A DNA stretch of 64,000 nt from Planctomycetota bacterium (GTDB lineage Bacteria; Planctomycetota; UBA1135; UBA2386), in contig OZ245838.1 in the NCBI GenBank assembly GCA_965228735.1, positions 928,001-992,000 of the forward strand, in the 5' to 3' direction. Within the stretch, counting starts at the first letter, position 1; each line of letters starts with the position of its first letter. Under the pieces are notes generated by a model that saw only the letters and a program-made list of their open reading frames with translations, did no database searches and was not told the origin of the DNA. Shown here piece by piece: positions 24,489-55,320 of this stretch. Made by a program: the position numbers and the translations under genes.

Positions 24489-26030
24489 TCACTTCAGGAC
24501 GACGACCGGGCTCTGGATGCCGGTGCGGCCGATGCCCGAGACTGCGATTGCGCGGTAGCCCGCCGGGATCGTGCAGCGGCCGTGGTCGGCGCCGACGACG
24601 CTCGCCGTGTGCCAGCCGAGCGTGTCGAGGACCTGCACCGCGACGAAGCGGGTGTCACGATCCGGCGGCCAGCGCACGGTGACGCCGTCGCTGCCGCGCT
24701 CGAGGCGGGCCTTCGGTTTCGGCGGTGCGGTCGTTCCGAGCCACGGGGACTCGGGCGCGATCGCGAGTTCGCCGTAGAGGCGTTTGCGCAGCGCGCCGCC
24801 GACGTTGGGTGCGTCGGTGCGCAGCGCCTTGAAGCTGAAGTGGACGTGACCCAGTGACACCTGACCGTTCCTGCCCTCGCCGCGGATCAATTCGATCTGG
24901 TCCGTGAGCTCGTTCGGTCGGCACGGCGGCTTCTGCTGCAGGCACCGCCCCGGGTTGATGCCGGGCCAGACGTGGCGGTAGATCACGTTCTTGCGGTGCC
25001 AGTAGCGCAGCAGGACGGGGAAGCTCTGCGGCTTCTGGTCGATCGGCCAGTAGAGCTGCGGTGCGAGATAGTCGAGCCAGCCCTGCCGCAGCCAGTGCGG
25101 CACATCGGCGTAGAGATCCTCGTATTGATCGATGCCGGCCTTGATGCCGGCGGGCTCGCCGGGGCGCGCGATGCCGAACGGGCTGATGCCGACCTGCACC
25201 CAGGACTTCTCGTCGTGCACGTTCTCGTAGAGGTCGCGGACGAAGTCGTCGATGTTCTGCCGCCGCCAGTCCGACCGCCCGAGTTTGCCGCCGCGCGCGC
25301 GATAGCCGGCGTAGCTGCGCTCGTCGTCGAACTTCACCCCGCGCACCGGGTACGGATAGAAGTAGTCGTCGATGTGCACGCCGTCGACGTCGTAGCGCCG
25401 CACGACGTCGAGGATCACGCGCATCGACCACTCGCGCGCCTTGGGATCGCCCGGGTCCATCCATTCGTACGACCCGAACTTCACGCACGCCTCCGGCAGG
25501 ACGCGGCGGACGCTCGACCGATCGGGCGGCGACTTGCCGCTCGGGTGACCGCAGCGGAACGGATTGAACCACGCGTGCAGTTCGAGTCCGTGGCGGTGGC
25601 AGCGATCGATCACGTACTCGAGCGGATCCCAGTCCGTGCCCGGCGCCCGGCCCTGCTTGCCGGTCAGCCACTCCGACCACGGCTCGAGCACCGAACGGTA
25701 CATCGCGTCGGCTGCCGGGCGGACCTGGAACACGAGCGCGTTCAGCCGGAGTTCGGCCGCGCGGTCGACGATCGCGTCGAGCTCGGCCCGGGCCGCAGCC
25801 GTCGAGAGCCCGGGGCGTGACGGCCAGTCAATGTTGGCGACCGTCGCGACCCACGCGGCGCGGAACTCGCGGAGGAGCGGCGGTGGCGTCTCACGTCGTT
25901 GCGCCGCTGCGGGTTCGGTGCACGCGGACAACGTCAGAGCCAGCCCGAGCACCAGCAGCAGCCAGCTCGGTGGCCGGCCCGCGAGTCGCGAGAGTCGTGA
26001 GGAGAACCAGTTGCGCCGCCACCCAGCCAT
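24489..26030 (-). CDS. GHL10/DUF187 (YddW/DigH-like) glycosyl hydrolase lipoprotein
   Basis: LSAC lipobox; EFRAAWVATVANIDWPS, FQVRP, HAWFNPF, YDVDGVHIDDYFYPY, ISPFGI, PQLYW. Start position approximate. Confidence 0.9.
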   Translation of the reverse strand: MAGWRRNWFSSRLSRLAGRPPSWLLLVLGLALTLSACTEPAAAQRRETPPPLLREFRAAWVATVANIDWPSRPGLSTAAARAELDAIVDRAAELRLNALVFQVRPAADAMYRSVLEPWSEWLTGKQGRAPGTDWDPLEYVIDRCHRHGLELHAWFNPFRCGHPSGKSPPDRSSVRRVLPEACVKFGSYEWMDPGDPKAREWSMRVILDVVRRYDVDGVHIDDYFYPYPVRGVKFDDERSYAGYRARGGKLGRSDWRRQNIDDFVRDLYENVHDEKSWVQVGISPFGIARPGEPAGIKAGIDQYEDLYADVPHWLRQGWLDYLAPQLYWPIDQKPQSFPVLLRYWHRKNVIYRHVWPGINPGRCLQQKPPCRPNELTDQIELIRGEGRNGQVSLGHVHFSFKALRTDAPNVGGALRKRLYGELAIAPESPWLGTTAPPKPKARLERGSDGVTVRWPPDRDTRFVAVQVLDTLGWHTASVVGADHGRCTIPAGYRAIAVSGIGRTGIQSPVVVLK

Positions 26031-26185
26031 CGTCGCCCGATTGTCGGTCAACCGAGTGACGGACGCCACCGGATGTTGCGAGCAACTCGGGCAAAACCGG
26101 GCAACTGCATGCAGGCCCATCGGCCGCTACGTTCTGCACTCCCGTGAGGCCTCGAATAGTTCGACCGCCCCACGCAGGATCCACG

Positions 26186-29100
26186 ATGCCTCGAATCGCC
26201 CTCCCTTTCGCGATGGCGTTCTGCCTCGCTCCGGTCAGCCTGCTGTCCGCGCAGAACGAGCGGTTGCCAGAAACGTTCCAGGTCGCGCTCGGCATGCAGC
26301 AGCGCGGCATGCACGAAGAAGCCGCGCGCTACTTCAGTCAGTTCGTCGACCAGAGCCCGCGCCATCCGCTGCGCGCCGAGGCGCACTACCGCGCGGGCGT
26401 GAGTCAGGCCGCGGCCGGTGCGGCGCGCGACGCCGTGCGTTCGCTGCAGTCCGCGTTGCAACGCGGCGGCGAGAACTTCCGCCTCAAGCCGGAGTGTCGG
26501 TATCGCCTCGGCAATCTGCTCCAGGAAGCCGAGGAGCACGCGGCTGCCGCGACCCAGTTCGAGGCGCTCGGCAAGGAAGTGAAGAACGACCACTACCTGC
26601 GCGCCCCCGCGTGGTTCGCGGCCGGCGAGTGTCGCCGGGAACTCGGGGATGACGGCAAGGCCGCCGTGGCATTCGCCGCGAGCGTCGAGTCCGCGACCGG
26701 CGAGCAGCGTGAGTATCTGTTCCCGGGGCTGTATCAGCTCGGTTTCTGTCTGCGGCGCGTCGACGCGCTGCCCGAGGCCGCGACCGTGTTCGCGCGCGCG
26801 GCGGAAGCGGCGCCCGATGCAGCGGCGCAGGGTGAGTGCCGTTACCTCGAAGGGGACACCCTGCTGCGGCTCGAGAAGTACGGGCCGGCCCGGGAGGCCT
26901 TCACGGCCGCGCTGCGCGTCGAGTCGGACTTCCGCGACGATGCCCAGTTCGGTCTCGGCTGGGTCGCGCTCGGCGAGGACGACCAGGAGGCGGCGCGGGC
27001 GGCGTTCGCCGCCGTCGTGGGGGAACATCGCGACTCGCCGCTCGCCGGGAAGGCGCGCCTCGAGCTCGGCCGGTCGTGGTATCGCGCGGAGAACTACGAG
27101 GCCTGCCAACGCGCCCTGACGCCGCTGACGGGCAACAACGTGGCGGCCGACCTGCAGCGCGAGGCGCGTGAGCTGCTCGGCCTGTGCGCGCTCGCGACGG
27201 GTGCCGGCGAACAGGCGGTGGCGACGTTGCAGAAGTCGATCAGCGAGGCGGCCGCGGCGGATCGCCCGCGGCTGTCGTTCGCGCTTGGCGAAGCGCACGC
27301 CAACCTCGGGCAGTGGCAGGAGGCGGCCGCGGCCTACGCGAAGGTGCCGGCGGGAGCCGGGCCGGAGCTGTTCGGTGACGCGCTCTACGGCCACTGCTTC
27401 GCCCTGCACATGCTCGGCGCGCACGAACAGTCGAACGATCGCGCGCGGGCGTTGCTGGCCTTGCAGCCGGCGCACCGCCTCGCGCCCCATGCCAGGTTCG
27501 CGGTCGCGGAGAACCTGTTCCTCATGCAGGACTATCCCGGCGCGGCCGAGGTCTACGGCGCGCTCGAGGGCAGCGACGAGTTCGGCGAGCGGGCCGCCTG
27601 GAAGCTCGCCTGGTGCGCCTACCTGCAGGACGACAAACAGAACGCGGCGGCTCGCTTCGGCAGGCTCGCCGCGTCGGACGCGGGGTTCGCCGAGGAGGCG
27701 CTGGCAATGACGGCGCTCGCGCTGCTCGAGGCCGGCAACGCCGACGCGGCGTTGACCGAGGCCGACCGCTACCGGGCGCGGTACCGCGAGGGCGCGTTCC
27801 TCGACCGCACGGAACGGGTCGCGGCGCGCGTGCTGCGGCAGCGCGGCAACCTGGCCGGGGCGCGCCGCCGCCTCGAGCGGGCCGCGGCCGCGGCAGGCAA
27901 CGAGCAGGAGGCGACGGGCGATCGCCTGGAGCAGGCCGAGCTCGCGTACCAGGAGGGCGACTACGAGGCCGCCGACGGTTTGTTCGAACCGTTGATGGGC
28001 CGCGACGACGCGACGGGCGCGCGCGCGATCGCGGGCCGCGCGTGGTGCGCGTTCGAGCTCGGCGACGACGAGCGCTGCAGCGCGCTGATCGCGCGCGGAC
28101 TCGGCCATCCCCACAAAGGCGAGGTGCCGGGTCTCCTCGAGCTGAAGTCGGCGGTGTGTCACCGGCAGTCGGACTGGCCGGGTGCGATCGAGGTCGCGCA
28201 GACCTACCTGCGCTCGTTCGCCGATCACAGCAAGGCGCCGGCGATGCGCTACGCGCTCGGGGTGGCGCAGGCGCGCAACGAGGATCACGCCGCGGCATGC
28301 GCGACGCTCGCGGCGCTCGAACGTGACGGCGGCTACGAGCGGCCGGACCGCGTGCAGTACGAGCTCGCCTGGGCCTGCCGTCGCGCCGGCCAGGAGAACG
28401 AAGCGCTCGCGGCGTTCGCGCGCCTGCTCATCGGGACCAAGGACGAGGAGCTGGCCGGCGAGGCGCGGCTGCATCTCGGCGTCGCGGCGCTCGAGAACGA
28501 CAAGACCCCGGAAGCGACGGGCTTGCTCGCGGCCGTCCGCGGCAGCCACCGTGGCCGCGCGCTGTATCAGCTCGCGTTCGCCGAGTTCGAGCGCAGCGAG
28601 TCGCAGCGCGGGGCCGAGCGGGACAAGACGTTGAGCACCGCCCGCACGCGATTCGACGAGGTCGCGGGGCGTCAGGGTGAGCCGCTGGCCGGCGAGGCGC
28701 TCTACCTCGGTGCCGAATGCAGCCAGAAGCTCGGTGACCACGAAGGGGCGGTCGCGCGCGCCCGGCGGTTGCTGGACGCGATGCCGGACCACGAACGCGG
28801 TGACCGCGCCCGGCTCGTGCTCGGTGAATCCGCCGTCGCGCTCGGTCAGGGGGATCTCGCCGTGCCCGCGCTGGAACGCTTCCTGCGCGACGGCGAACCC
28901 GAAGGCACGGCCGCGGCGCGCGGTCACCTGGCGCTCGGGCGCGCGCGCCTGCTGCGGGGCGAGTGCAAGCGGGCGGAGTCGTCGTTCCAGAAGGTGACGG
29001 CGATCAGCGAGGGGCCGCTCGGCGCCGAGGCGCAGTACCGCATCGGCGAGGCCCGGCAGCAGGACGGCAACCTGCAGGGCGCGGCGGACGCGTTCGTCAA

Positions 29101-29278
29101 ACTGCCGATCCTCTACGCCCACGAGGAGTGGGTGCGGAAGGGGCTGCTCGCGGCCGGGATGACCTACCAGCAGCTGCGGCAACCGCAGAAGGCGAGCCGC
29201 TTCTTCGAAGAACTCCAGTCCAAGTATCCCGACAGCCCCGAGGCGGCCGCAGCGAAGGCGCGCCAGCGCAACGGCTGA
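26186..29278 (+). CDS. Large periplasmic TPR protein (~1030 aa) with CpoB/YbgF-like C-terminus
   Basis: AGGA Shine-Dalgarno and signal peptide; continuous TPR-like helices; ends AEAQYRIGE...EELQSKYPDSPEA. Confidence 0.85.
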   Translation: MPRIALPFAMAFCLAPVSLLSAQNERLPETFQVALGMQQRGMHEEAARYFSQFVDQSPRHPLRAEAHYRAGVSQAAAGAARDAVRSLQSALQRGGENFRLKPECRYRLGNLLQEAEEHAAAATQFEALGKEVKNDHYLRAPAWFAAGECRRELGDDGKAAVAFAASVESATGEQREYLFPGLYQLGFCLRRVDALPEAATVFARAAEAAPDAAAQGECRYLEGDTLLRLEKYGPAREAFTAALRVESDFRDDAQFGLGWVALGEDDQEAARAAFAAVVGEHRDSPLAGKARLELGRSWYRAENYEACQRALTPLTGNNVAADLQREARELLGLCALATGAGEQAVATLQKSISEAAAADRPRLSFALGEAHANLGQWQEAAAAYAKVPAGAGPELFGDALYGHCFALHMLGAHEQSNDRARALLALQPAHRLAPHARFAVAENLFLMQDYPGAAEVYGALEGSDEFGERAAWKLAWCAYLQDDKQNAAARFGRLAASDAGFAEEALAMTALALLEAGNADAALTEADRYRARYREGAFLDRTERVAARVLRQRGNLAGARRRLERAAAAAGNEQEATGDRLEQAELAYQEGDYEAADGLFEPLMGRDDATGARAIAGRAWCAFELGDDERCSALIARGLGHPHKGEVPGLLELKSAVCHRQSDWPGAIEVAQTYLRSFADHSKAPAMRYALGVAQARNEDHAAACATLAALERDGGYERPDRVQYELAWACRRAGQENEALAAFARLLIGTKDEELAGEARLHLGVAALENDKTPEATGLLAAVRGSHRGRALYQLAFAEFERSESQRGAERDKTLSTARTRFDEVAGRQGEPLAGEALYLGAECSQKLGDHEGAVARARRLLDAMPDHERGDRARLVLGESAVALGQGDLAVPALERFLRDGEPEGTAAARGHLALGRARLLRGECKRAESSFQKVTAISEGPLGAEAQYRIGEARQQDGNLQGAADAFVKLPILYAHEEWVRKGLLAAGMTYQQLRQPQKASRFFEELQSKYPDSPEAAAAKARQRNG

Positions 29279-29296
29279 ACCCCGAGGTAGCCAAGC

Positions 29297-29995
29297 ATGC
29301 TCTCGTTCGCGAACACGTTCCCGCAGGAGCCGACGGTCGTTGCGACCGTGGGTGAGTTCTTCGATGCCGGTGGGGCGCTCATGTGGGCGATCCTCGCCTG
29401 CTCCGTCGTCGTCGTCGGGCTCGCGCTCGAACGCTACCTGTCGTTGCGGCGCGGGCGGATCCTGCCGCGCGTCGTCGTCGATTCCGTCGAGCAGATCGAG
29501 CAGGGCCGGGTCGACGTGGTCGCTGACGGGATGCTCGCGTCCAAGGCGCCCGCGGGTCGCGTGCTCGCGGCTGGCATCCGGCGGCGGGGTCGCGTCCTGA
29601 GCGAGGTCGAGAAGGCGATGGAGGACCAGATGCTGAAGGAGCAGGCCCGCCTGCGCGGCAACATCCGCGGCATCACGCTGTGTGCCGCGATCGCGCCGTT
29701 GCTCGGTCTGCTCGGCACCGTGCTCGGCATCGCGGACGCGTTCGCGGCGGTCGAGCAGACCGGTCTCGGTTCGGCGGACGGCAGCGAAGCGCTCGCAGCG
29801 GGCATCAAGTCGGCGCTCTACACGACGATCTTCGGCCTCGGCGTCGCGATCCCGGCGACGCTGCTGTCCGCGCACCTGCACGCGCGCGTGCGGCGGCTGA
29901 TCCTCGTCGCGAGCGATGCCCTCGCGCCGGCGATCGATCGTCTCGCGCCGGCGGTGGGACCGCAGCGCAGCGAAGGGGAGCACCATGCGGCTTGA
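29297..29995 (+). CDS. exbB: MotA/TolQ/ExbB proton channel protein
   Basis: GGALMWAIL, APLLGLLGTVLG, ALYTTIFGLGVAIPA. Confidence 0.92.
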   Translation: MLSFANTFPQEPTVVATVGEFFDAGGALMWAILACSVVVVGLALERYLSLRRGRILPRVVVDSVEQIEQGRVDVVADGMLASKAPAGRVLAAGIRRRGRVLSEVEKAMEDQMLKEQARLRGNIRGITLCAAIAPLLGLLGTVLGIADAFAAVEQTGLGSADGSEALAAGIKSALYTTIFGLGVAIPATLLSAHLHARVRRLILVASDALAPAIDRLAPAVGPQRSEGEHHAA

Positions 29996-30404
29996 CCTCG
30001 AGAGCGGCAGCGAGTCGGACGACGTCATCAACATGATGCCGCTCGTCGACGTGGTGTTCCTGCTGCTGATCTTCTTCCTGGCGGCCACGACGTTCGCGCG
30101 CAACGAGGTCGAGCTCGACCTCAAGCTGCCGAAGGCGCGGTCCGGCGAGGCCAGCACGCCGGTGCAACGCCTCGTCGTCAACGTGTTCGCGGATGGCCGG
30201 ATCGTCGTCGACGGTCGCGAGGTCACGGTGGAGGCGTTGCGGCAGAAGCTCGCGGCGGCCGCGCGCCGCAACCGCGAACAGTCCGTGCTCGTGCGCGGCG
30301 ATCGCTCGGCGCAGTTCGGCGTCGGCATCGCGGTGCTCGACGCGTGCAAGCTCGCCAAGATCACGAAGGTCGACTTCGGCGCGTTGCCCGAAGCCGGTCG
30401 CTGA
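29985..30404 (+). CDS. exbD: ExbD/TolR protein
   Basis: GGGGAG Shine-Dalgarno; INMMPLVDVVFLLLIFF with the conserved membrane Asp; VLVRGDR. Confidence 0.93.
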   Translation: MRLDLESGSESDDVINMMPLVDVVFLLLIFFLAATTFARNEVELDLKLPKARSGEASTPVQRLVVNVFADGRIVVDGREVTVEALRQKLAAAARRNREQSVLVRGDRSAQFGVGIAVLDACKLAKITKVDFGALPEAGR

Positions 30405-30446
30405 GCTCCCAAACCCACCTTCGCCCCGCCTCCTTCCGACGATCCG

Positions 30447-33400
30447 ATGCGTGATGCTTCCCGCCGCTGGTTGATGCGCCTGTGCTGGGCCGGCGCGCTC
30501 GTTTCGGGTGCGTTGCTCGTCGGTCTGCGTGTCGGGCGGCCGGTCTACTACACCGACGGCGGGCGCGAGATCGCCGCGACCGAGGTCGCCGGTGCGGGCA
30601 TGCTCGTCTGGCAGACGCCCGAGGCGACGGTGGAGCTGCCGGGTCCGGTCGAGGGCCGGGTGACCGAGCTGCCGGACGGCAGGTTGCTCTACGGCGTGCG
30701 GACGGCCGACGAGACGACGGACCTCGTCGTGTTCGACCCGGAACGGCCGGACGTGCCGCCCGAGCCCGCGTACGGCCTCAACACCCGCGACAACGAACTT
30801 GCGCCCGCGTGCGCGAGTGACGGCGCGATCTACTTCGCATCGGATCGCGACGGCGACGACGCGGTGGGTGGCTACGACATCTACCGGTCGACCTGGACCC
30901 CGCGCGGCTTCACGCGGCCCGCCGCGGTCGTGGTCTGCAACACGGCGCTCGACGAGACGGACCCGGCGCCGAGCCCGGACGGTGCCATGTTCGCGTTCGT
31001 GCGGATCGATCCGCGTGTCAAGAACGGCGATGACGGCACCCTGCTGCACTGCCGGCTCGGCAGCGGCGTCGAGCCCGAACGCGTTTTCCCCGATCTCGGC
31101 ACCTCGCGCCGGGTCGTCGACCGCGACCCCGCGTTCTCGCCCGACGGCGGCGCGCTGTGGTTCGTGCGGCGCGAAGTGGGCAGGCCGCTCGCGCTGATGC
31201 GCGTGAGCACGCTCGGAGATCGCTTCGATCAGCCGGTCGCGGTCGGTGAAGACTGGGCGATGGGTCACCTGCGCGGCCCGTTGCCCGGCAGCGACGGCAT
31301 GACGCTGGGCCTGCTGCAGGGCGCGTCGGACAGTGAAGGTCGGCACCTCTGGTTCGTCTCGGAGGCGCGCGAGATCTACCCGTGGTGGTCAGGACAGCGC
31401 TGGCTCGAGTACCTGCTGCTCGGCCTGTTCGCGACGTTCGTGCTGCTGCTCGTGCTGCTGCATCTCGGCCGCCGCTGGCGCACGCTCGACCTGCTGGCGC
31501 AGTGTCTGCTGCTCTCCCTGCTCGTCCACATCCTGCTGTTCCTGTGGCTCATGGGCGTCGAGATCACGGGCGCGTTGATGCGCGGGAACGAGGACGGCGG
31601 CAGCCTCGAGGTCACGATCTCGAGCGTGATGGACGCGAGCGACTCGGCAAGCCAGGGCTCGGGGCCGCGGTCGGAAGCGATCGCGGCGCTCGTGCGGTTC
31701 GACCCGACGGAACGCTCGTTCGACGTGAGCGCGCCGACCGCGGCCACCGAACGCGCGCCCTCGCCGCAGCCCGTCGAGGCGTCCGACTCGCAGTACGACG
31801 CGACGATCGCGGCCGAGGACGCCGCGGACCGGGCCGTCGACCAGACCGCGGTCACCGCGGCGATGGCCGATGAGCAGGAGATCGCGCCCACCCGCGACGG
31901 CGCCGACGCCGCGCTCGCGACGTCCGCCCAGGCGCTGCCGACGGTCGAGAGCAGCGAACGCGCCGCGACGGCGGCCACGGAGTCGAACCTCACGCCGAAT
32001 GCGGCGGGTCGGGTCGAGGTCGCGATGCCGGGCGGCGCGGTCGGTCGCGCCGCGACGCGGCCACAGGCGGCCGAGGGCAACGCCGGGCGGGTCATCGATC
32101 CCGCGGCCCGTGAGGTCGCGATGACCGCGGCCGAGGTCGCCGAGTCGTTGCCGGCAGGCGCAGAGGCGCGCCGGGCGGCCACGGACGATGCGCTCGCGAC
32201 GGAGAGCAACCCGTCGGCGGCCGCGACGACGACCCCGACTGCCGTTGCCGCGCGGGCGGCGACCGCCGCGGACCGGGTGGTCGGGACGTTGCCGGCGTCG
32301 CCGACGGCGTCACCGAGCGCGCCTGCCGGTCAGCTCGCCCGGGCGTCGCGCAATGGCGTCGACCTCGCGCCGCAGGCGTCGCGTTCGTCCCTCGAACCGG
32401 CTGCGAGCGCGCGCCGCGCGAATCCGGGAGCGGTCGCGATGGCGGACGAGCGGGCCGCGGTGGCGTTGCCGGCCTCGAACGCGGCGGACGCGGCGGAGCC
32501 CGCGATCGAACGCGTGGCGCGGGCGCTGACCGGGCCCGTGTCGCGCCCGCGGACACCATCGGCGAACGAGCGCGGCACCGTGCAGCCGCGGCGGTTCGAG
32601 GTCGCGGTGCAACGGCCAGCCTCGGCGCTCTCGCGTGCGAACCGGCGCGCGTCCGGGCCGAGCCCGAGCCGCCGACCGTCGATGCGGCCGCAGCTGCGAC
32701 CGGGGCGCGTGGCCGCCGCGCTGCCCGACCTGGCCGATGGCCGCCGCGACATCACGAACCCGAGCCGGCCGGACCGGGCGGGGGCCGCTGGCCAGGACGC
32801 GCCGCTGGCGCCGCCGAAGATCGCGCGCCTCAGCCTTGCGCCGCGGGCCGCGATGCTCGACGAGCCGCGCCGGTCGCCGTTCCTCGGCGCGTTCGGCAGC
32901 GCGATCCCGCCCGTAACCCTGCCGGGTTCGCTCGTCGAACGGGCAGAGCCGGAGTTCCGCGTCGACGTCGCAGTGGCCGCGCCCGTCGCGGAAGCGACGG
33001 CGTACAGCAACCGGTTCGGCCCAGCCAAGGCGGAGGCGCTCGAGCGCTTCGGCGGCACGGCGGAGACCGAACGCGCCGTGGCGGACGGTCTGCGCTACCT
33101 CGCCCGGATCCAGAACCGGAACGGCAGCTGGGGCGACAACCGCGGCTTCGACGACAAGTACGGACTCGTCTACGTCGGCAAGAGCGCCCTCTGTGTGCTG
33201 GCGTTCCTCGGCGCCGGTCATACCCCGGAATCGGACACCGAGCACAGCGCCGTGGTGGCGCGCGCGCTCGCGCACCTCCTCGCGATCCAGGACGAGGACA
33301 CCGGCGCGTTCGGGCCGAGCTCGTGCTACGGCCACGGCATCGCGACCTACGCGCTCGCCGAGTGCTACGGCATGACGAAGGACGAAGCGCTGCTGCGACC

Positions 33401-34106
33401 GCTCGAGGAGGCGTTGACCTGGATCATCGTCAACCAGGGGCCGCGCAACGATCGGCGCAATCGCGGCGGTTGGGGCTACTTCTCGCCGGGCCTGCGACGC
33501 GAGGACAGCTACGCCCGCGTGTCCGTCACGTCGTGGATGGTCATGGCGCTCGAGTCGGCGCGGATGTCCGGCGTCGAGCTGCCGGACGACGTGCTGCCGC
33601 AGGCGCGCGAGTACCTGCAGAACTCGTTCGACGCGCGCCGCAACTGGTTCCGCTACAACCACAAGCCGAGCCGCCTGCGCTCGGGCTGGCCGACGCTGCC
33701 GGCGAGCACGCCGGCCGGCGCGTTCTGTCTGCAACTGCTCGGCACCAAGGCCGAGGATCCGATGATCGCGGCCGCCCTCGAGTACACCGTCGACCGCCGG
33801 CCGCGCGAGTATCGCCGGTACCGCGACGACGACTTCGTGCTGCGCGGTCAGGGCAACGTCTACTTCTGGTACTACGGCACGCTGTGCTGCTTCCTCGCGG
33901 GCGGCGAAACCTGGGAGCGCTGGAACGCGCGGCTGTCGACCCTGCTGCCGGCGGCGCAGTCGGAGGACGGCTCGTTCGCGCCGATCGACGTCTACGCGCG
34001 CTACGCCGGGGACAACGACCGGGATCGCAGCTACACGACGGCGATGTGCGTGCTGAGTCTCGAGGTCTACTACCGCTACTTCACGCCGCTCTTGCTCGGC
34101 AGGTGA
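30447..34106 (+). CDS. Membrane fusion protein: TolB-like PD40 propeller + SxxxH TM helix + Ala/Pro-rich linker + prenyltransferase/squalene-oxidase-repeat barrel
   Basis: PD40-like IYFASDRDG..GGYDIY, DPAPSPDG, DPAFSPDG; TM helix LLLSLLVHILLFLWL; QW-like QNRNGSWG, QDEDTGAFG, QSEDGSF; C-terminal LSLEVYYRY. Confidence 0.8.
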   Translation: MRDASRRWLMRLCWAGALVSGALLVGLRVGRPVYYTDGGREIAATEVAGAGMLVWQTPEATVELPGPVEGRVTELPDGRLLYGVRTADETTDLVVFDPERPDVPPEPAYGLNTRDNELAPACASDGAIYFASDRDGDDAVGGYDIYRSTWTPRGFTRPAAVVVCNTALDETDPAPSPDGAMFAFVRIDPRVKNGDDGTLLHCRLGSGVEPERVFPDLGTSRRVVDRDPAFSPDGGALWFVRREVGRPLALMRVSTLGDRFDQPVAVGEDWAMGHLRGPLPGSDGMTLGLLQGASDSEGRHLWFVSEAREIYPWWSGQRWLEYLLLGLFATFVLLLVLLHLGRRWRTLDLLAQCLLLSLLVHILLFLWLMGVEITGALMRGNEDGGSLEVTISSVMDASDSASQGSGPRSEAIAALVRFDPTERSFDVSAPTAATERAPSPQPVEASDSQYDATIAAEDAADRAVDQTAVTAAMADEQEIAPTRDGADAALATSAQALPTVESSERAATAATESNLTPNAAGRVEVAMPGGAVGRAATRPQAAEGNAGRVIDPAAREVAMTAAEVAESLPAGAEARRAATDDALATESNPSAAATTTPTAVAARAATAADRVVGTLPASPTASPSAPAGQLARASRNGVDLAPQASRSSLEPAASARRANPGAVAMADERAAVALPASNAADAAEPAIERVARALTGPVSRPRTPSANERGTVQPRRFEVAVQRPASALSRANRRASGPSPSRRPSMRPQLRPGRVAAALPDLADGRRDITNPSRPDRAGAAGQDAPLAPPKIARLSLAPRAAMLDEPRRSPFLGAFGSAIPPVTLPGSLVERAEPEFRVDVAVAAPVAEATAYSNRFGPAKAEALERFGGTAETERAVADGLRYLARIQNRNGSWGDNRGFDDKYGLVYVGKSALCVLAFLGAGHTPESDTEHSAVVARALAHLLAIQDEDTGAFGPSSCYGHGIATYALAECYGMTKDEALLRPLEEALTWIIVNQGPRNDRRNRGGWGYFSPGLRREDSYARVSVTSWMVMALESARMSGVELPDDVLPQAREYLQNSFDARRNWFRYNHKPSRLRSGWPTLPASTPAGAFCLQLLGTKAEDPMIAAALEYTVDRRPREYRRYRDDDFVLRGQGNVYFWYYGTLCCFLAGGETWERWNARLSTLLPAAQSEDGSFAPIDVYARYAGDNDRDRSYTTAMCVLSLEVYYRYFTPLLLGR

Positions 34107-34131
34107 GGCGGGCGGTAGCGTCAGTCGCCTG

Positions 34132-34776
34132 ATGGCCGACGCCGACACCAAGACCCCGATCAAGCCGCCACCGTCGCTCGGTGCGCGGGTGTTCCGGACC
34201 ACCGTTCTCGCGATGGCGGCGACCATCCTCGTGTTCCTCGGGGTCGGCATGTTGCTCGACGAACGCTGGGACGTCACGAGCGAGCGGGTCGTCCCGGCCA
34301 CGCCCGCCGCGGTGCGACCGTTCATCGTCGACTTCCGGACGTGGGATCGATGGGCTGGCATGACCGTCGAACTCGGCGCCGGCGTCGAGCGTGAGGTCGA
34401 TGGCGAGCCGGGCACGGTCGGGCACAGCGTCGAATGGCGCGGGGCGCAGGGGACCGCGGTGGTGCGGATCGCGAAGTTGGCCGAGGGGCGGCTGGACTAC
34501 GAGTACCTGACGAAGCGGGCCGGCGAGGGCGATCTCAAAGCCGTCGCGACCGGCTGGATCGAGTGGGCGGCCGAGGGCGACGGCACGCGCGTGAAGTGGT
34601 ACGACGGCGGCGCCTGGCCGACGCTCGTGCATCGCTGGATCGGCTGGTTCGGCGTGCTGCAGGAGAGCGTGCGCCGGATGCAGGACGTGAGCCTCGAAGG
34701 GCTCGCTCGCGAGGCGGCCCTAGAAGAAGACCCGGCCGAGAATCCCGGGAAGGCCGCGGACCCGGGCAAAGACTAG
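34132..34776 (+). CDS. Membrane-anchored SRPBCC (START-like/polyketide cyclase) protein
   Basis: N-terminal TM, VTSERVVPATPAAV...DFRTWDRW, GTRVKW, C-terminal helix. Confidence 0.75.
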   Translation: MADADTKTPIKPPPSLGARVFRTTVLAMAATILVFLGVGMLLDERWDVTSERVVPATPAAVRPFIVDFRTWDRWAGMTVELGAGVEREVDGEPGTVGHSVEWRGAQGTAVVRIAKLAEGRLDYEYLTKRAGEGDLKAVATGWIEWAAEGDGTRVKWYDGGAWPTLVHRWIGWFGVLQESVRRMQDVSLEGLAREAALEEDPAENPGKAADPGKD

Positions 34777-35342: not shown

Positions 35343-35415
35343 GACGTCACTCTAACCCGCGGATTCCAGGGGGGAAGGGCTCGCGCATTGCGCCGCGACC
35401 GCCGAGGATGCGAGC

Positions 35416-37602
<2,187 letters not shown>

Positions 37603-41843: not shown

Positions 41844-42722
41844 CTACTCGAACTTCGCGCCGGCAGCGATCCAGCGTTCGAGCAGCTGCAGCTCGCGCTC
41901 GGTCGGCTGCGGCTTGCCCTCCGGGGGCATGTGCTCGTCGTCGTCGAGCGGATAGCGACAGCGATAGAGCAGCGCGCTCTCCTTCGGATCCCCGGCGACG
42001 ATGACGGGACCGTAGTCGCCGCCCTTCTGGATGCCCTCGACCGTCGTCAGCAGCAGCTCGCCCTTCGTCTTGTCGGGGTTGTGGCACTTCGTGCAGACGC
42101 GCTCGAGGAACGGCTGGATGTGATCCCGGAACGTCACCACCGCGGGCAGCGCGGTCGGTGTATCGCCGGCGGCTTCGTCGCCGTTCGCGGGGCCTGCAGT
42201 GCTGCCGGTGTCGTTGCTGGCGATGTCACTGCTGCCGTTGTTCTGGTCACCGGCGTTCGCCGCCCGGCCCTCCTTTTGCACCTCGAAAGGCTCCGTGAGG
42301 AAGTCCGGGCCGTGGGTGATCGAGCCGCCGAGGTGGCCGGCGGGCAGCATGGCGACGAGGCCGAGCAGCAGCAGGATCCGGAACGGCGCGCGCTTCCGCA
42401 GGCCCGAGACGATCGCGAGCAGCACGCAGACGCTGCCGAGCACGATGCCGGCGATCTTGTGGTTGCCCACGAGCTCGCTCTCGCTGCCGTTCTCGCCGGC
42501 GAGCACGAGGCCGGACGCGGTCGCGAGCGCGGCGCTGATCGCCGTCAGCCAGGCGAGCGCGCAGATCGGTCCGCGTGGGCTCTCGCGCCGGATCAACAAG
42601 GCGCCGAACTCGAGCAGGAACATCGCCGGAACGAGGCCGAGCGGCATGTGCAGGACGACCGGGTGGCTGCGCCCGAGCAGGGTGAACCACGGCGAAGGGT
42701 CTTCGGTCAGCAGGGAGAGCAT
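41844..42722 (-). CDS. Membrane (DUF2231-like) + planctomycete cytochrome c protein
   Basis: GRSHPVVLHMPLG, GHLGGSITHG; C-terminal CTKCH...HMPP...WIAAGA. Confidence 0.85.
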   Translation of the reverse strand: MLSLLTEDPSPWFTLLGRSHPVVLHMPLGLVPAMFLLEFGALLIRRESPRGPICALAWLTAISAALATASGLVLAGENGSESELVGNHKIAGIVLGSVCVLLAIVSGLRKRAPFRILLLLGLVAMLPAGHLGGSITHGPDFLTEPFEVQKEGRAANAGDQNNGSSDIASNDTGSTAGPANGDEAAGDTPTALPAVVTFRDHIQPFLERVCTKCHNPDKTKGELLLTTVEGIQKGGDYGPVIVAGDPKESALLYRCRYPLDDDEHMPPEGKPQPTERELQLLERWIAAGAKFE

Positions 42723-42736
42723 TGGCGACGCGGGTT

Positions 42737-44179
42737 TCAGGCGAGCAGGTCGGTGATCACGTTGCCGAATACGTCGGTGAGCCGGAAGTCGCGACCCTGA
42801 TGACGGTAGATCAGCCGTTCGTGATCGAATCCGAGCAGGTGCAGCATCGTGGCGTGGAGATCGTGCACCGAAACCGGATCCTCCACGATGTTGTAGCTGT
42901 AGTCGTCGGTGCGGCCGTAGCTGAATCCCGGTTTGACGCCGCCGCCGGCCATCCACACCGTGAAGCACCGCGGGTGATGATCCCGCCCGTAGTTCGTCTT
43001 GCTGAGGCCGCCCTGGCTGTAGACCGTGCGCCCGAACTCGCCGCCCCAGGTCACGAGCGTCTCGTCGAGCATCCCGCGCCGCCGCAGGTCCGTGATGAGG
43101 GCCGCGATCGGCCGGTCGACGGCCTGGCACTGCTTGGTCATCTCGCTCGGCAGATTGCCGTGCTGGTCCCAGCCGCGCATGTAGAGCTGCACGAAGCGGA
43201 CACCGCGTTCGGCGAGCCGGCGGGCGAGCAGGCACGAACTCGCGAACGTGCCGGGCTTCTTCGCGTCCTCGCCATAGAGCGCGAACGTCGACTCGGGTTC
43301 GTCGCTGAGATCGGTGAGCTCGGGCACGGACATCTGCATGCGGTAGGCCATCTCCTGCTGCGCGAGTCGGGTCTGGATCTCGCGGTCCAGCGTCGCGCGC
43401 GCCTCGCGTTCGGCGAAGTCGCTGACGAGATCGAGCATCGCGCGGCGGTCCGCGCGCGAGATGCCCGCGGGATCGCGCAGGAACAGCACGGGGTCACCCG
43501 TCGACCGCAGCTTGCACCCCTGGTGCTCGCCCGGCAGGAAGCCGTTGCCCCAGAACCGGGCCGCGAGCGCCTGCATGTTGCCGAAGCCCTGGGTGATCAT
43601 CACGACGAACGTCGGCAGATCGCGGTTGTCCGTGCCGAGCCCGTAGCTCGTCCAAGCGCCGAGGCTCGGGCGACCGGGCTGCTGCGTGCCCGTCTGCGCG
43701 AACGTGATCGCGGGTTCGTGGTTGATCGCCTCGGTATGGACGCTGCGCACGAAGCACAGCTCGTGCGCGACGCTGCCGAGGTGCGGCATGAGCTCGCTGA
43801 TCCATGCGCCGTCGTTGCCGTTGTCCCAGCGCTTGAACTTGAACTTGCTCGGCGCGACGGGGAATCGCTTCTGGCCGGACGTCATGCCCGTCAGGCGCTG
43901 ACCGTTGCGGATCGAGTCCGGCAGGTCCTCGTCGTAGCGATCGACGAGCTGCGGCTTGTAGTCGAAGAGGTCGAGCTGACTCGGGCCGCCCTCCATGTGG
44001 AGGGAGATCACGCGCTTGGCGCGGCCCGTGAAGTGCGGTTGCTGCCGCCCCTCGCCCCGATCGTGAACCACGTCGCCGCTGCTGGCGAGGGCCATCGTAC
44101 CGAGCGCGCCGGTGACGGAGGTCGCGGACCGGCCGAAGAACCGCCGGCGGGTGAGGAGCTTGTTGAGTTCGTCGTACAC
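42737..44179 (-). CDS. DUF1501 protein (Tat-exported, sulfatase-like fold)
   Basis: TRRRFF Tat motif; MEGGPSQLDLFD, GWDQH, WGGEFGRT, GRDHHP, DLHAT, FRLTDV. Confidence 0.93.
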   Translation of the reverse strand: MYDELNKLLTRRRFFGRSATSVTGALGTMALASSGDVVHDRGEGRQQPHFTGRAKRVISLHMEGGPSQLDLFDYKPQLVDRYDEDLPDSIRNGQRLTGMTSGQKRFPVAPSKFKFKRWDNGNDGAWISELMPHLGSVAHELCFVRSVHTEAINHEPAITFAQTGTQQPGRPSLGAWTSYGLGTDNRDLPTFVVMITQGFGNMQALAARFWGNGFLPGEHQGCKLRSTGDPVLFLRDPAGISRADRRAMLDLVSDFAEREARATLDREIQTRLAQQEMAYRMQMSVPELTDLSDEPESTFALYGEDAKKPGTFASSCLLARRLAERGVRFVQLYMRGWDQHGNLPSEMTKQCQAVDRPIAALITDLRRRGMLDETLVTWGGEFGRTVYSQGGLSKTNYGRDHHPRCFTVWMAGGGVKPGFSYGRTDDYSYNIVEDPVSVHDLHATMLHLLGFDHERLIYRHQGRDFRLTDVFGNVITDLLA

Positions 44180-44192
44180 GTTCGGCTCCGGT

Positions 44193-47100
44193 TCAGTCGA
44201 TGTAGAGGGTCGCGTCGAGGTTGAGGAACGCGTTCGCGAGCAGCAGGAACGCCGCGTGCTCGGGCGCCGGGATCGCCCCGTCCCGCGGTGATTCGCCGAC
44301 GGTCAGCAGCTGCTCCGCGTCCTCGGGTGCTGTGTGGTAGCGCCGCCGCATGCGTTCGAGGGTCGCGAGCGCCCGGTCGAGCCGGCCACCGTCGAGGTCG
44401 TGCCCCGTGCAGCGGCGATACATCGCCCGCAGGCGCGTGCGATCGTCACCTGGGGATTGCAGTGCACGTTGCGCCAGCGCCCGGGCCGCTTCGACGAACT
44501 GTTCGTCGTTCCAGAGCGCGAGCGCCTGCAGCGGCGTGTTCGTGACGGATCGCCGGATCGTGCAGAACTCCCGGGTCGGCGCGTCGAACGTCAGCAACGT
44601 CGGCGGTGGACACGCGCGCTTCCAGTAGGTGTAGAGGCTGCGGCGCCACAACGCGTCGCCGTCGTCACGTTCGAAGGTGCGCGTGTTCGACTGCAGCATC
44701 GCGACCTCGCGCCACAGGCCCTCGGGCTGATACGGCTTGACGCTCGGGCCGCCGACCCGTTCGACGAGCAGGCCGCTGACGTAGAGCGCCTGGTCGCGGA
44801 TCGCCTCGGCCGTGAGCCGGCGCCGCGGGAACCACGCCAGCAGGCGGTTGTCCGGGTCGACGCGCGCGGCCGCGGTGTTCGTGCGGGCGCTCTGCCGGAA
44901 CGTGGCGGACGTGACGAGCAGCCGGAGCATCTCCCGCATGCTCGTGCCGCGCCTGCGGAACTCGAGCGTCAGCCAGTCGAGCAGCTCCGGGTGGCTCGGC
45001 CACTCGCCCTGCAGGCCGAAGTCCTCGCTCGTCCTGACGATGCCGGTGCCGAACACGAACTCGAACAGCCGGTTCACCGCGACGCGGTGGGGCAGCGGGT
45101 TGTCCGCGCTCACGAGCCATCTGGCGAGTCCGAGGCGATCGCGCGGCATCGCGGCGTCCCCGATGCCGAACATCGCGGGCAGCGCGGGCTGCACCGGCTG
45201 TGACTCGTCGGCCTTGTCGTATTCGCCGCGTTCGAGGACGTAGGTCGGGCGGCGTTCCATGCGCTCGCTCATGACCATCGTGCGCGGCAGGTTGGCCTCG
45301 AGCTCGCTGAGCTGCTGCTCGAGGGCGGCGACGCGGGCCTTGCGCTCGCGGTAACCCGGCGAGTGGTTCTCACGCCACGCGGCGTGGATGCGGGCCGTCA
45401 TCGCGTCGTCGATCGCCGCTTCGGGCAGCAGCCAGAGCCGCATGTCACCCGTCAGCACGGCAGGAGCTTCCTCGTGCCGCCAGTAGAACCCGCCCGCGCC
45501 GCCGGTGTTGACGACCTCGAGCGTCACCGCCTGCACGCCGCGCGCGACCGTGATGTCGACCCGATCCTGGTTCGCGGCGACGCCGCGGGCGACGCGACGC
45601 TCCGCAACCGTCTGGCCGCCGACGTGCACTGCGAAGCCGTCATCGCTGCCGAGCCAGACCGTGAGCGGGCGCTCCGTGGGGGCGAACACCTCGTGGGCGA
45701 TGAACGTCGAGCCCGCATCGCGTGGCAGGTTCTTGTAGACGGTCGCGGGCCGGAGGTCGGCGTCGTATTGCCAGCGTTGGTCGCCGAAGCGGGCGTCGAG
45801 CGCGATGCGTTTCGCCGACTCGGGGCCGTGCACCGCGTCGTAGGCGTCCTCGTTCGTGCTCGCGAACCGGCCGGTCTTGTAGAAGCCGCTCGTCAGCACG
45901 GGCAGGCGCGCGAGCATCGCCTCGTCGATCCGGCCGAGATGCAGGCGAACGCGGCCGAGCACGTGCTGGCTGTAGACCGAGTCGTAGCGCAGCCGCACCC
46001 GGGCCTCGACGCCGCGGCCGTCGCCGAACGGCGCATCGGCGAGGAAGAGCGCGCGCCGCGCGCCGGGTGGCCGTTCGTGGGCCGCGACCGCCCAGCCCCG
46101 GTTGTCGTCGTGCAGCGCGTTGGCGATGCCGAAGTCGCCGTTCGTCTGCTCGACGTCGGCCATCGCCCAGACCAGCGGCACGTCGCGCCACTCCTCGCGG
46201 CTACCGCGCGCGCGCACCTCGAGTCGAACGTGCTGCAGGACCGCGTTGCCGTTGGGGGACCGGCCGACCTTGCCCTGGCCGAGGGTGCCGTCGGGGAGCG
46301 CCTCGAGGCCCAGCAGGCGCAGATCGCCCGCCGTGGTCGCGACGGTGAGAACGTGCTCGTCGCGAGCCGGGTTGTCCCCGGTCGCGAGAACCGAACCGTC
46401 GGGCTGGAGGGCGAGCGTCGCCCCGGCGGTGCTCGTCGCCGCGGTCACCGTCGCCTCTGGCCACTCGATCCCGCTCGCGCCGCGCAGGGACCGGAACCAG
46501 GCGGCCCGTTGGGCGGCTTCTCCGGGTTGTTCGGCCGCGAGCGCCGCGCGGGCCGCGTCGAGGTCGTTCGCGAGTGCCGTCCGCGCCGCCGACTGCTCGT
46601 CCGACAGCACGTCGAGCGCGGGCTCGAGCGCGCGGTTGGGGTCGCGCGACTGCCGGTAGAGGCCCGGTTCGTCGTTGTTGTAGAAGTAGGCGAACAGGGA
46701 GTAGTAGTCGCGCTGCGTGATCGGGTCGAACTTGTGATCGTGACACCGCGCGCAGCCGACCGTCAGCCCGAGGAACACGCTGCCGACCGTGGCGGTGCGT
46801 TCGGCCGCGTATTCGACGAGATACTCCGCGTCGATCGCGCCGCCTTCGTCCGTCGTGACGTGCGCCCGCAGAAACCCGGTCGCGACCTTCTGCGCCTGGG
46901 TCGCGTCGGGGAGCTGATCGCCGGCCAGCTGCTCGACCACGAACTCGTCGAACGGCTTGTCGTCGGCGAGGGCCTGCAGCAACCAATCGCGCCACGGCCA
47001 GATCTGGCGCCCGGCGTCCATGTGGATGCCGCAGGTGTCGGCATAGCGCGCGGCGTCGAGCCACGGACCCGCGAAGTGTTCGGCGTGGCGCGAACGATAC

Positions 47101-47786
47101 GGCTCTTCGTCGAGCAGCCGGTCGACGAGTCGGTCGTAGGCGTCGGGGCTGCGGTCCGCGTCGTAGTCCGCGAGCTCCGCCGGCGTCGGCGGCAGGCCCG
47201 TGAGGACGAGGAACGCGCGGCGGGCCAGCGTTCTCCGGTCGGCCTCCGGGTTCGGCGTGAGCCCGTGCCGCAGCAGTGCGGCGCCGATGAACCGATCGAC
47301 CGGATTGCGGGCCTGATCGGCGATGTTCGCCGCCGCGGGGATGGTCGGCGGCACGGGCGGCACGAACGCCCAGTGGTCCTCGTACGGCGCGCCGGCCGCG
47401 ATCCAACGTTCGACGAGGTCGCGCTCGCGCGCGTCGAGCGCCGGCTTCTGCGACTCCGGCGGCGGCATGCGATACCCGTCCTCCGTGCTCGTGACGCGAT
47501 GCCAGAGCCGGCTGCTGGCGGGGTCGCCCGGGACGATCGCCGCGCCGCCATCGCGGTCCATGACCGCCGCCGCGCGCAGATCGAGGCGCAGCTCGGCCGC
47601 CCGCGTGCCCTGGTCCGGGCCGTGGCAGCGGAAGCACTTGTCGGCCAGGATCGGGCGGATGTCGCGGCCGTAGCGGACGTCGTCCTGGCTGCGCAGTGAC
47701 GGGCTCAGCGTCACGAGCAAGGCGCTCGCGGCGAAGAGACTCAGGCACCGCCGGGCTCCGGCAAGAACGCGTTCTGACCTCGACAT
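44193..47786 (-). CDS. Planctomycete cytochrome c + DUF1549 + DUF1553 (PSD1) protein
   Basis: CFRCH, HWAF, WLDAARYAD, CARCHDHKFDP, PSHPELLDWL, RRSLYTYWKR, TNTPLQAL. Confidence 0.93.
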   Translation of the reverse strand: MSRSERVLAGARRCLSLFAASALLVTLSPSLRSQDDVRYGRDIRPILADKCFRCHGPDQGTRAAELRLDLRAAAVMDRDGGAAIVPGDPASSRLWHRVTSTEDGYRMPPPESQKPALDARERDLVERWIAAGAPYEDHWAFVPPVPPTIPAAANIADQARNPVDRFIGAALLRHGLTPNPEADRRTLARRAFLVLTGLPPTPAELADYDADRSPDAYDRLVDRLLDEEPYRSRHAEHFAGPWLDAARYADTCGIHMDAGRQIWPWRDWLLQALADDKPFDEFVVEQLAGDQLPDATQAQKVATGFLRAHVTTDEGGAIDAEYLVEYAAERTATVGSVFLGLTVGCARCHDHKFDPITQRDYYSLFAYFYNNDEPGLYRQSRDPNRALEPALDVLSDEQSAARTALANDLDAARAALAAEQPGEAAQRAAWFRSLRGASGIEWPEATVTAATSTAGATLALQPDGSVLATGDNPARDEHVLTVATTAGDLRLLGLEALPDGTLGQGKVGRSPNGNAVLQHVRLEVRARGSREEWRDVPLVWAMADVEQTNGDFGIANALHDDNRGWAVAAHERPPGARRALFLADAPFGDGRGVEARVRLRYDSVYSQHVLGRVRLHLGRIDEAMLARLPVLTSGFYKTGRFASTNEDAYDAVHGPESAKRIALDARFGDQRWQYDADLRPATVYKNLPRDAGSTFIAHEVFAPTERPLTVWLGSDDGFAVHVGGQTVAERRVARGVAANQDRVDITVARGVQAVTLEVVNTGGAGGFYWRHEEAPAVLTGDMRLWLLPEAAIDDAMTARIHAAWRENHSPGYRERKARVAALEQQLSELEANLPRTMVMSERMERRPTYVLERGEYDKADESQPVQPALPAMFGIGDAAMPRDRLGLARWLVSADNPLPHRVAVNRLFEFVFGTGIVRTSEDFGLQGEWPSHPELLDWLTLEFRRRGTSMREMLRLLVTSATFRQSARTNTAAARVDPDNRLLAWFPRRRLTAEAIRDQALYVSGLLVERVGGPSVKPYQPEGLWREVAMLQSNTRTFERDDGDALWRRSLYTYWKRACPPPTLLTFDAPTREFCTIRRSVTNTPLQALALWNDEQFVEAARALAQRALQSPGDDRTRLRAMYRRCTGHDLDGGRLDRALATLERMRRRYHTAPEDAEQLLTVGESPRDGAIPAPEHAAFLLLANAFLNLDATLYID

Positions 47787-53792: not shown

Positions 53793-53825
53793 CGCCGGTT
53801 TGTAGCGCCGGAGGTCACACGTTTC

Positions 53826-55265: not shown

Positions 55266-55320
55266 CGCCGAAACGGCGATTCGGGCTGACCGCGCCGAGG
55301 CGCGATCCGTAAGAACGGGC

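Follow-up and report, generated by a model that had tools for sequence, protein, structure and literature searches.

The stretch of DNA analysed here (the window, 64,000 nucleotides, C1:928001-992000) belongs to a 93% complete planctomycete genome of 7.19 Mb that consists of a single contig (C1). The window harbours four adjoining genes, which encode a large tetratricopeptide repeat (TPR) protein, an ExbB/TolQ-type and an ExbD/TolR-type motor subunit, and a fusion protein in which a PD40-repeat propeller, a transmembrane (TM) hairpin and a long linker precede an alpha6/alpha6 barrel. These genes form a conserved unit, TPR-ExbB-ExbD-fusion, and a fifth gene directly downstream, encoding an SRPBCC/START-like protein, lies outside it. 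The fusion is very probably a TonB/TolA-like force transducer coupled to the adjoining motor. There is about an even chance that the four-gene operon works in the manner of Ton, with a barrel-tipped arm that pulls on a target in the outer membrane encoded elsewhere and in this way most likely powers the import of large substrates.

A preliminary description of this DNA, made from its sequence alone, had proposed that the ExbB/ExbD motor drives the fusion protein. Such a partnership is very likely, judging from a Ser-x3-His membrane helix, a D-box-like strand and a fixed gene order. Hydropathy and AlphaFold2 place three membrane helices in the fusion (residues ~9-29, 314-342 and 349-370). The basic N-terminus and a basic cytoplasmic loop ahead of the third helix imply that the N-terminus would lie inside and that propeller, linker and barrel would all be periplasmic. 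In an alignment of the window protein with 119 of 120 listed homologues (260 were found in total), S357 and H361 of the third helix are kept in 115 and 119 of the 120 sequences, respectively, and both are invariant in a second alignment of 44 sequences; by its sequence, this Ser-x3-His pattern is a motor-docking signature of the TonB/TolA type. The D-box-like pattern is found at His+25 to +30 in 110 of 119 homologues, compared with 84 of 1676 control windows (~5%) from the remaining linker, and its six-residue form in 101 of 119 compared with 0.8% in the controls. The strand begins at His361+26 in the window protein; the E. coli D-box peptide 43-54 shows the same pattern and position, with its first hydrophobic residue at His+25 (PMC10907165).

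The motor itself is intact, as had been stated before. Among 55 sequences including the window's own, ExbB keeps S36 (55/55), T141 (55/55), T176 (54/55), T177 (55/55) and P186 (54/55), and ExbD keeps the membrane aspartate D22 in 54. They correspond to the TM1 serine, the pore threonines, the TM3 proline and the aspartate seen in the structures of Ton and Tol from E. coli (PMC12215075). Both subunits score below the NCBIfam equivalog cut-offs for TolQ, TolR, ExbB and ExbD and therefore belong to neither the Ton nor the Tol subtype.

The five genes are co-oriented on the plus strand and tightly packed. Positions, lengths and gaps agree with the preliminary description, the latter being 18 bp (TPR/ExbB), -11 bp (ExbB/ExbD), 42 bp (ExbD/fusion) and 25 bp (fusion/SRPBCC). 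A gene-neighbourhood survey, which that description had named as a check, recovers the four-gene order and not the SRPBCC gene. The order TPR-ExbB-ExbD-fusion is found in 25 of 38 close loci, 12 are without upstream DNA, and one (L028) differs; the same order recurs in other families with unrelated flanks. For a pooled count, 159 loci (a few of them same-genome duplicates) were kept if at least 7 kb of upstream sequence was available, which dropped 38 loci of Arg-type, i.e. of the window's own barrel clade (see below), and 41 others. Of the retained Arg-type loci, 57/57 have the TPR gene, 56/57 have ExbB and ExbD, and 56/57 have all four genes. Among the other barrel loci the S/A-x3-H helix is present in 21/23, an adjoining ExbD in 16/23 and all three companion genes in 10/23. 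At three loci (L086, L124 and L164) the TPR gene directly precedes the barrel protein with no ExbB or ExbD detected alongside, which suggests that the TPR protein and the arm are direct partners.

The SRPBCC gene directly follows the fusion in 33 of the 38 close loci, together with other neighbours, whereas it is found beside the fusion in 0 of 32 other-family loci, 30 of which extend at least 1 kb downstream; weak homologues occur on other contigs. Its previously assumed role as a component is therefore rejected, the gene being syntenic only in close relatives. Arg-type orthologues, which a distinct break in the scores sets apart (5e-94 to 2e-49), are present in 38 of 301 genomes of the phylum and in 16 families, and some barrel homologue is present in 269 of the 301. 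The Arg-type operon is found in two of four other genomes of the family and in five of 13 other genomes of the order. This patchy distribution fits an accessory role. Named homologues of the fusion are almost all from Planctomycetota, and the cultured Engelhardtia mirabilis holds an orthologue (P0107).

The 1030-residue TPR protein matches TPR_16 (1.4e-29) and TPR_6 (1.3e-24). It scores 175 bits over its whole length against TIGR02795 (tol_pal_ybgF), above the cut-off and with the best stretch at residues 924-1026, which bears out the CpoB-like end assigned to it earlier; a CpoB trimer domain was not matched. The protein is predicted to be exported via a cleavable signal peptide (hydrophobic residues 2-22).

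The fusion has Pfam matches to PD40 (1.9e-11) and, under its cut-off, to SQHop_cyclase_C (3.2e-5); TonB_C and TolA_C are not matched in Pfam or NCBIfam, nor is vWA in Pfam. The linker is ~450 residues long in the window protein and 255-833 residues (median 490) among homologues, with a mean conservation of 0.29. A repeat motif is found at about residues 423, 521, 609-620, 717 and 820 of the window protein. A profile built from one stretch yields 2.3 matches per linker, with the training site counted in, compared with 0.4 in shuffled linkers, and motif spacing peaks at 80-100 and 190-200. Matches and spacing together indicate that the linker is built of degenerate modules of ~95-100 residues. 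Domain composition varies between orthologues: six proteins add a C-terminal PDZ domain (P0154, P0179, P0180, P0222, P0223 and P0224), and four have a second barrel, placed next to the propeller region or within it (P0129, P0178, P0189 and P0210). Locus L177 carries two propeller-barrel genes in tandem.

The propeller model (AlphaFold2, pLDDT 89, pTM 0.82) shows five strand groups tethered between TM1 and TM2. TolB is its top Foldseek match (E 7.6e-12, TM 0.42), and the top VIA-align matches are GH159, GH130 and GH43 (Z 18-19), with TolB at Z 17.4. Propellers of GH159, GH130 and GH43 are five-bladed. The TolB-like part previously assigned to the fusion accordingly holds as far as a PD40 propeller with TolB as top Foldseek match is concerned; on its model, however, the domain is predicted to be five-bladed and is not TolB, and a TolB N-domain is lacking. 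The propeller is undetected in the orthologue loci L093, L094 and L104, and since some orthologues do without it, the membrane-pinned propeller would be an accessory module for docking or sensing. Single-sequence searches of the PDB with the propeller and with the barrel gave nothing significant.

The barrel (AlphaFold2, pLDDT 92, pTM 0.92) belongs, on its model, to the terpene cyclase/prenyltransferase/TED superfamily fold. Its VIA-align matches include squalene-hopene cyclase 2sqc (Z 26.7, rmsd 3.2, 297 residues aligned), 8pak (Z 26.1), cellobiose 2-epimerase (Z 24.8), and further sugar epimerases and GH76 (Z 24-25), and MstE is among the Foldseek matches. The nearly equal scores of sugar epimerases and GH76 mean that the fold alone does not point to lipids. 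DXDD occurs nowhere in the barrel sequence; in a weak profile alignment, one of several possible registers in a repeat fold whose register is uncertain, the cyclase motif falls on S959-C-Y961-G-H963. The wider family, unannotated and with 7,724 representatives at 50% identity (E<=1e-30), mostly carries an Asp that precedes the conserved Trp in the third inner helix by six residues, a position at which the clade of the window protein has Arg1024. This Arg-type clade is a branch of 65 rows (support 99, SH-like only) in a 138-row FastTree tree, built after thinning had removed most of the closest loci. In what we take to be the register of prenyltransferases, the zinc-ligand Asp and Cys positions would correspond to R1024 and S1026, both conserved here. 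Further strongly conserved residues are Y905, K912, Y961, H963, Y1011, W1030, Y1139 and Y1142. The barrel is probably a non-cyclase binding head. An output in lipid or terpenoid handling, as suggested in the preliminary description, is not supported: the cyclase acid motif is absent, and the family Asp is replaced by Arg in the clade.

In the mechanism that we propose, by analogy to Ton and Tol structures, the third helix of the fusion would dock on TM1 of ExbB, the ExbD dimer would grip the D-box-like strand, and proton flow would tension the linker. The barrel would act as the binding head, its conserved aromatic and basic pocket gripping a peptide or an anionic ligand. Gene linkage suggests that the exported TPR protein may serve as periplasmic adaptor or guide of the arm; when the barrel was modelled in complex with TPR residues 25-324 and 716-1030, the score was 0.00, which is no evidence either way. 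In the weakest step, the target could be a channel in the outer membrane, for which a secretin is the best candidate. Import as the job of the machine is a tentative assignment, rated somewhat below even. It is favoured because the operon is patchy, because dextran uptake by planctomycetes is sensitive to CCCP with its machinery uncharacterised (PMC5394234), and because the Akkermansia MUL1 locus, which has ExbD/B among its components, serves in the transport of mucin (PMC13174399, 10.1101/2025.02.20.639370, 10.1101/2024.03.27.586211); mul1A is described as a mucin transport gene.

The choice of a secretin derives from other loci. The genome has a second motor, TPR-TPR-ExbB-ExbD-ExbD (6.775-6.782 Mb), that lies between two large secretin genes (C1:6,769,699-6,784,599, L190) with no transducer. 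This arrangement is seen again across the phylum. Of 20 regions that were fetched (gene calling failed in two low-GC ones), 18 have two secretins, 14 have ExbD between them and none has a transducer in between. The metagenome locus L153 (93-8125) encodes, in one orientation, secretin-TPR-ExbB-ExbD-ExbD followed by a barrel transducer with Ser-x3-His, and so links barrel arm and secretin directly in one genome. In a 46-row ExbB tree (FastTree; L175 and L153 are long branches), the twin-secretin motors group in a single clade (SH-like 100), to which those of L175 (567-9421) and L187 (136-15862) belong. These two motors are co-encoded with Asp-type barrel transducers, and the large TPR genes of both loci resemble (E 1e-53 to 1e-67) the TPR genes found in secretin clusters. 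A small vWA gene is present in L175 as well. Three loci thus connect barrel arms with secretin-associated motors, which makes a secretin the best candidate target; nothing found ties the window's own operon to a secretin. Contrary to the earlier assumption, the system is not self-contained: no outer-membrane protein is encoded, and the target must lie elsewhere. A broader proposal, that Planctomycetota and related phyla have in the barrel arms their missing equivalents of TonB, which motors reel in and which, together with the TPR rod, open secretin pores or pull cargo through them, we regard as rather unlikely. If true, it would imply proton-driven, ATPase-free import of macromolecules and unite barrel-transducer operons and twin-secretin clusters in one machine family; the secretin-pore reading would explain CCCP-sensitive polymer uptake, and the ~95-residue linker modules might be successive grip sites.

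Two further observations on secretins were discarded. Co-occurrence with the TPR-secretin query was not counted: all 28 Arg-type genomes (among G001-G200) match at E<=5e-78, but 177 of 201 genomes match at 1e-20, and kinship confounds the comparison. Barrel genes of family f11 that lie 6-9 kb from a secretin (L209) were rejected, being on the opposite strand with unrelated genes in between. Elsewhere in the genome, two stand-alone barrel genes of Asp-type with a Ser-x3-His helix and a Pro/Glu linker (C1:3,922,590-3,924,110 and 3,926,596-3,928,110, L191) have no motor nearby; either could be the arm that the twin-secretin motor lacks. The regions C1:4,484,997-4,498,616 and 314,808-329,387 encode further members of the barrel family, exported and with a single domain, in operons with coiled-coil proteins and large membrane proteins that we presume to be BatA/vWA-like. 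An orphan ExbD of the secretin-cluster type, with no ExbB alongside, is found at C1:5,339,918-5,340,442.

Several observations weigh against a Ton-like import machine with a barrel as binding head. At the motor interface, 50 of 55 sequences have Val or Leu at the ExbB position of E. coli Trp38, a tryptophan that contacts the TonB histidine (PMC12215075). The rest of the SHLS motif is half kept, with L368 in 85 of 120 sequences and mostly Glu, not Ser, at position 372; in Ton, too, the Leu and Ser of SHLS are less conserved (PMC12215075). At L028 only an ExbD match lies upstream of the fusion. Catalysis by the barrel stays conceivable, as it is the best-conserved region of the fusion (0.70) and keeps the acidic residues D1020, D1181 and D1189, which could serve it. 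Regarding the target, the link to secretins consists of three metagenome loci, and the window ExbB falls outside the secretin-associated clade. The Arg-type operon has no recurrent neighbour that encodes an outer-membrane protein; secretin matches occur in two of 191 loci, neither of Arg-type. The TPR-secretin query (E<=1e-20) has no match in eight of nine genomes of family f7, though this family has ExbD-barrel pairs (L108 and L109).

The main rival to a Ton-like import machine is a Pal-less analogue of Tol, in which a motor-driven arm with fused TolA-like and TolB-like parts and a CpoB-like TPR protein tethers, releases or remodels the outer membrane or the cell wall. The operon mirrors tolQ-tolR-tolA-tolB-cpoB, and both the Foldseek match of the propeller and the tol_pal_ybgF score of the TPR end fit this role. 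Within the 93% complete genome, TolB_N (PF04052) has no match, and Pal has two matches at 43-50 bits, under a cut-off of 125. The absence of pal from Planctomycetes is noted in the supplement of PMC12204202, and crateriform structures connect both membranes (PMC5394234). We nevertheless consider it unlikely. An operon in 38 of 301 genomes, missing from close kin that were searched, is unlike an essential division system, incomplete as the genomes are; moreover, both ends of the propeller are anchored in the inner membrane, it has five predicted blades and no TolB N-domain, it is undetected in three orthologue loci, and the operon encodes no peptidoglycan-binding domain.

An enzymatic or lipid-carrying role of the barrel (as a terpenoid cyclase, a prenyltransferase or a sugar-acting barrel), in which the motor moves it across the periplasm and the SRPBCC protein is a lipid shuttle, is improbable. 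In fold, it comes nearest to squalene-hopene cyclase and to class II cyclases of a single domain (Z 26-27), single-domain cyclases do exist (PMC12414744), and the barrel has QW-like repeats and a highly conserved pocket; against this stand the absent DXDD, the Arg1024 found throughout the clade, the near-equal scores of sugar epimerases and GH76, and an SRPBCC gene that is not co-conserved. Even less probable is a machine for surface adhesion or motility like the myxobacterial Agl-Glt system, with the barrel as binding head of an adhesion complex. Agl-Glt likewise pairs a TolQR-like motor with TPR proteins. A gliding role has been proposed for the analogous vWA-headed transducers (PMC12204202), and coral and macroalgae metagenomes are among the sequencing runs that hold at least half of the stretch. 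In the neighbourhoods examined, however, no outer-membrane or cytoplasmic gliding parts recur, and there is one motor and one arm only. Least probable of all is a motor that serves a canonical TonB encoded elsewhere, with the fusion as a mere neighbour. A second, stand-alone TonB_C gene without adjacent motor (C1:3,907,366) would agree with it, but the canonical TonB is encoded with its own ExbB and ExbD in a separate locus, receptor-ExbB-ExbB-ExbD-TonB (C1:4.008-4.016 Mb), and both docking motifs and the gene order are kept across 16 families. The genome has three TonB-dependent receptors. As had been noted for the locus and is confirmed by genome-wide family searches, no Pal, TonB_C or TonB-dependent receptor is encoded inside the window; all matches fall outside C1:928001-992000.

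Features of the window with their positions, counted from the first nucleotide of the window.
Feature	Position	Strand	Basis or remark
TPR protein, 1030 aa from ATG at 26186	26186..29278	+	Pfam, NCBIfam, hydropathy; core component
ExbB/TolQ-type motor subunit, 232 aa	29297..29995	+	PF01618 9e-26
ExbD/TolR-type motor subunit, 139 aa	29985..30404	+	PF02472 9.5e-29
Fusion, 1219 aa, inner-membrane: TM-PD40 propeller-TM hairpin-linker-alpha6/alpha6 barrel	30447..34106	+	Pfam, hydropathy, AlphaFold2, alignment
PD40-repeat beta-propeller of fusion, residues ~50-311	30594..31379	+	AlphaFold2, Foldseek, VIA-align
Third membrane helix of fusion with S357-x3-H361	31491..31556	+	conservation in 120 sequences
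D-box-like alternating hydrophobic strand, fusion residues 387-392	31605..31622	+	sequence pattern; candidate ExbD-binding site
Periplasmic linker of fusion, Ala/Pro/Ser/Arg-rich	31644..32996	+	composition, low conservation, repeat scan
C-terminal alpha6/alpha6 barrel of fusion	32997..34103	+	AlphaFold2, VIA-align, conservation
SRPBCC/START-like protein, membrane-anchored, 214 aa	34132..34776	+	PF10604 (Polyketide_cyc2) 4.8e-9; not core
GHL10 glycoside hydrolase-like gene	24489..26120	-	divergent from operon
DUF255 thioredoxin-domain protein	35416..37602	+	
PSCyt1/PSCyt2/PSD1 + DUF1501 cluster	41847..47786	-	typical for planctomycetes
Large Ser/Thr kinase + AAA_16 protein	50436..55322	-	predicted start uncertain

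The GHL10 gene adjoins the operon in most close relatives, not in other families. Long minus-strand frames beside the operon (e.g. 35347-37452, 701 aa) were rejected as shadows of the plus-strand DUF255 gene. The GC content of the locus (0.71-0.75) is at the top of the range of the window (0.67-0.75). Scans of the stretch gave no promoter-like site and three terminator-like sites (3.0 expected by chance), and no RNA dataset is among the sequencing runs listed as holding it.

The preliminary description had called the machine undescribed. This does not hold for the operon type, since Williams-Jones et al. (2025) report operons of the PVC group that consist of a TPR gene, tolQ-like and tolR-like genes, and a noncanonical, vWA-headed SHLS transducer (PMC12204202). 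For the barrel head itself, searches of the open-access literature, a scope that leaves aside subscription papers and bioRxiv supplements, turned up no published account. Neither prenyl nor squalene occurs in the main text or supplement of PMC12204202, barrel and toroid do not occur in its supplement, and the excerpts of PMC12505986 and PMC12414744 make no mention of such a transducer. Only a few output heads are known for motors of the ExbB/ExbD type: TonB, TolA and the transducer of gliding, joined in 2025 by the predicted vWA head. A barrel head would add another. If it does, many planctomycete proteins annotated as 'squalene-hopene cyclase/prenyltransferase repeat' would be parts of envelope machines. 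With its known genes and with H361, ExbD D22 and the D-box-like strand as sites for point mutation, the operon also offers a way to address macromolecule import and the Pal-less outer membrane.

Compared with known systems, the locus resembles Ton in its motor residues, the Ser-x3-His helix, a D-box-like strand at equal distance from the His and a long linker, but lacks TonB_C and a TonB-dependent receptor at the locus, has Val or Leu at the Trp38 position of ExbB, and carries its docking helix internally and not at the N-terminus. With Tol-Pal it shares a motor, a TolA-like anchor, a PD40 propeller and a YbgF-like TPR block in one operon; it differs by the absence of Pal, TolA_C and a TolB N-domain, by a membrane-pinned and predicted five-bladed propeller, by a 1030-residue TPR protein with no CpoB trimer domain match, and by its patchy distribution. 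Class II terpene cyclases (the beta domain of squalene-hopene cyclase, MstE, 8paj/8pak) share the alpha6/alpha6 barrel and QW-like repeats with the fusion (Z 26-27, 17-20% identity), whereas the barrel of the fusion is without DXDD, is predicted to be periplasmic and would sit at the tip of a tethered arm. From the twin-secretin motor clusters, which have two ExbD genes, the operon is set apart by an ExbB outside their clade, a single ExbD and the absence of a secretin in the window. In MUL1 of Akkermansia muciniphila, Mul1A is reportedly a TPR protein and the locus is said to have a vWA gene. MUL1, compared here by description only, is likewise a PVC locus in which ExbB/ExbD are needed for macromolecule import (PMC13174399), and no barrel-headed transducer is reported there. 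Closest are the vWA-headed transducers (PMC12204202), which share the position downstream of TPR, tolQ-like and tolR-like genes. The fusion differs from them by its alpha6/alpha6 barrel as head, by one ExbD instead of a pair, by a linker with a median of ~490 residues as opposed to ~100, and by an additional N-terminal TM, propeller and TM ahead of the docking helix. The locus is a barrel-headed variant of this class, which works like the class without its defining head.

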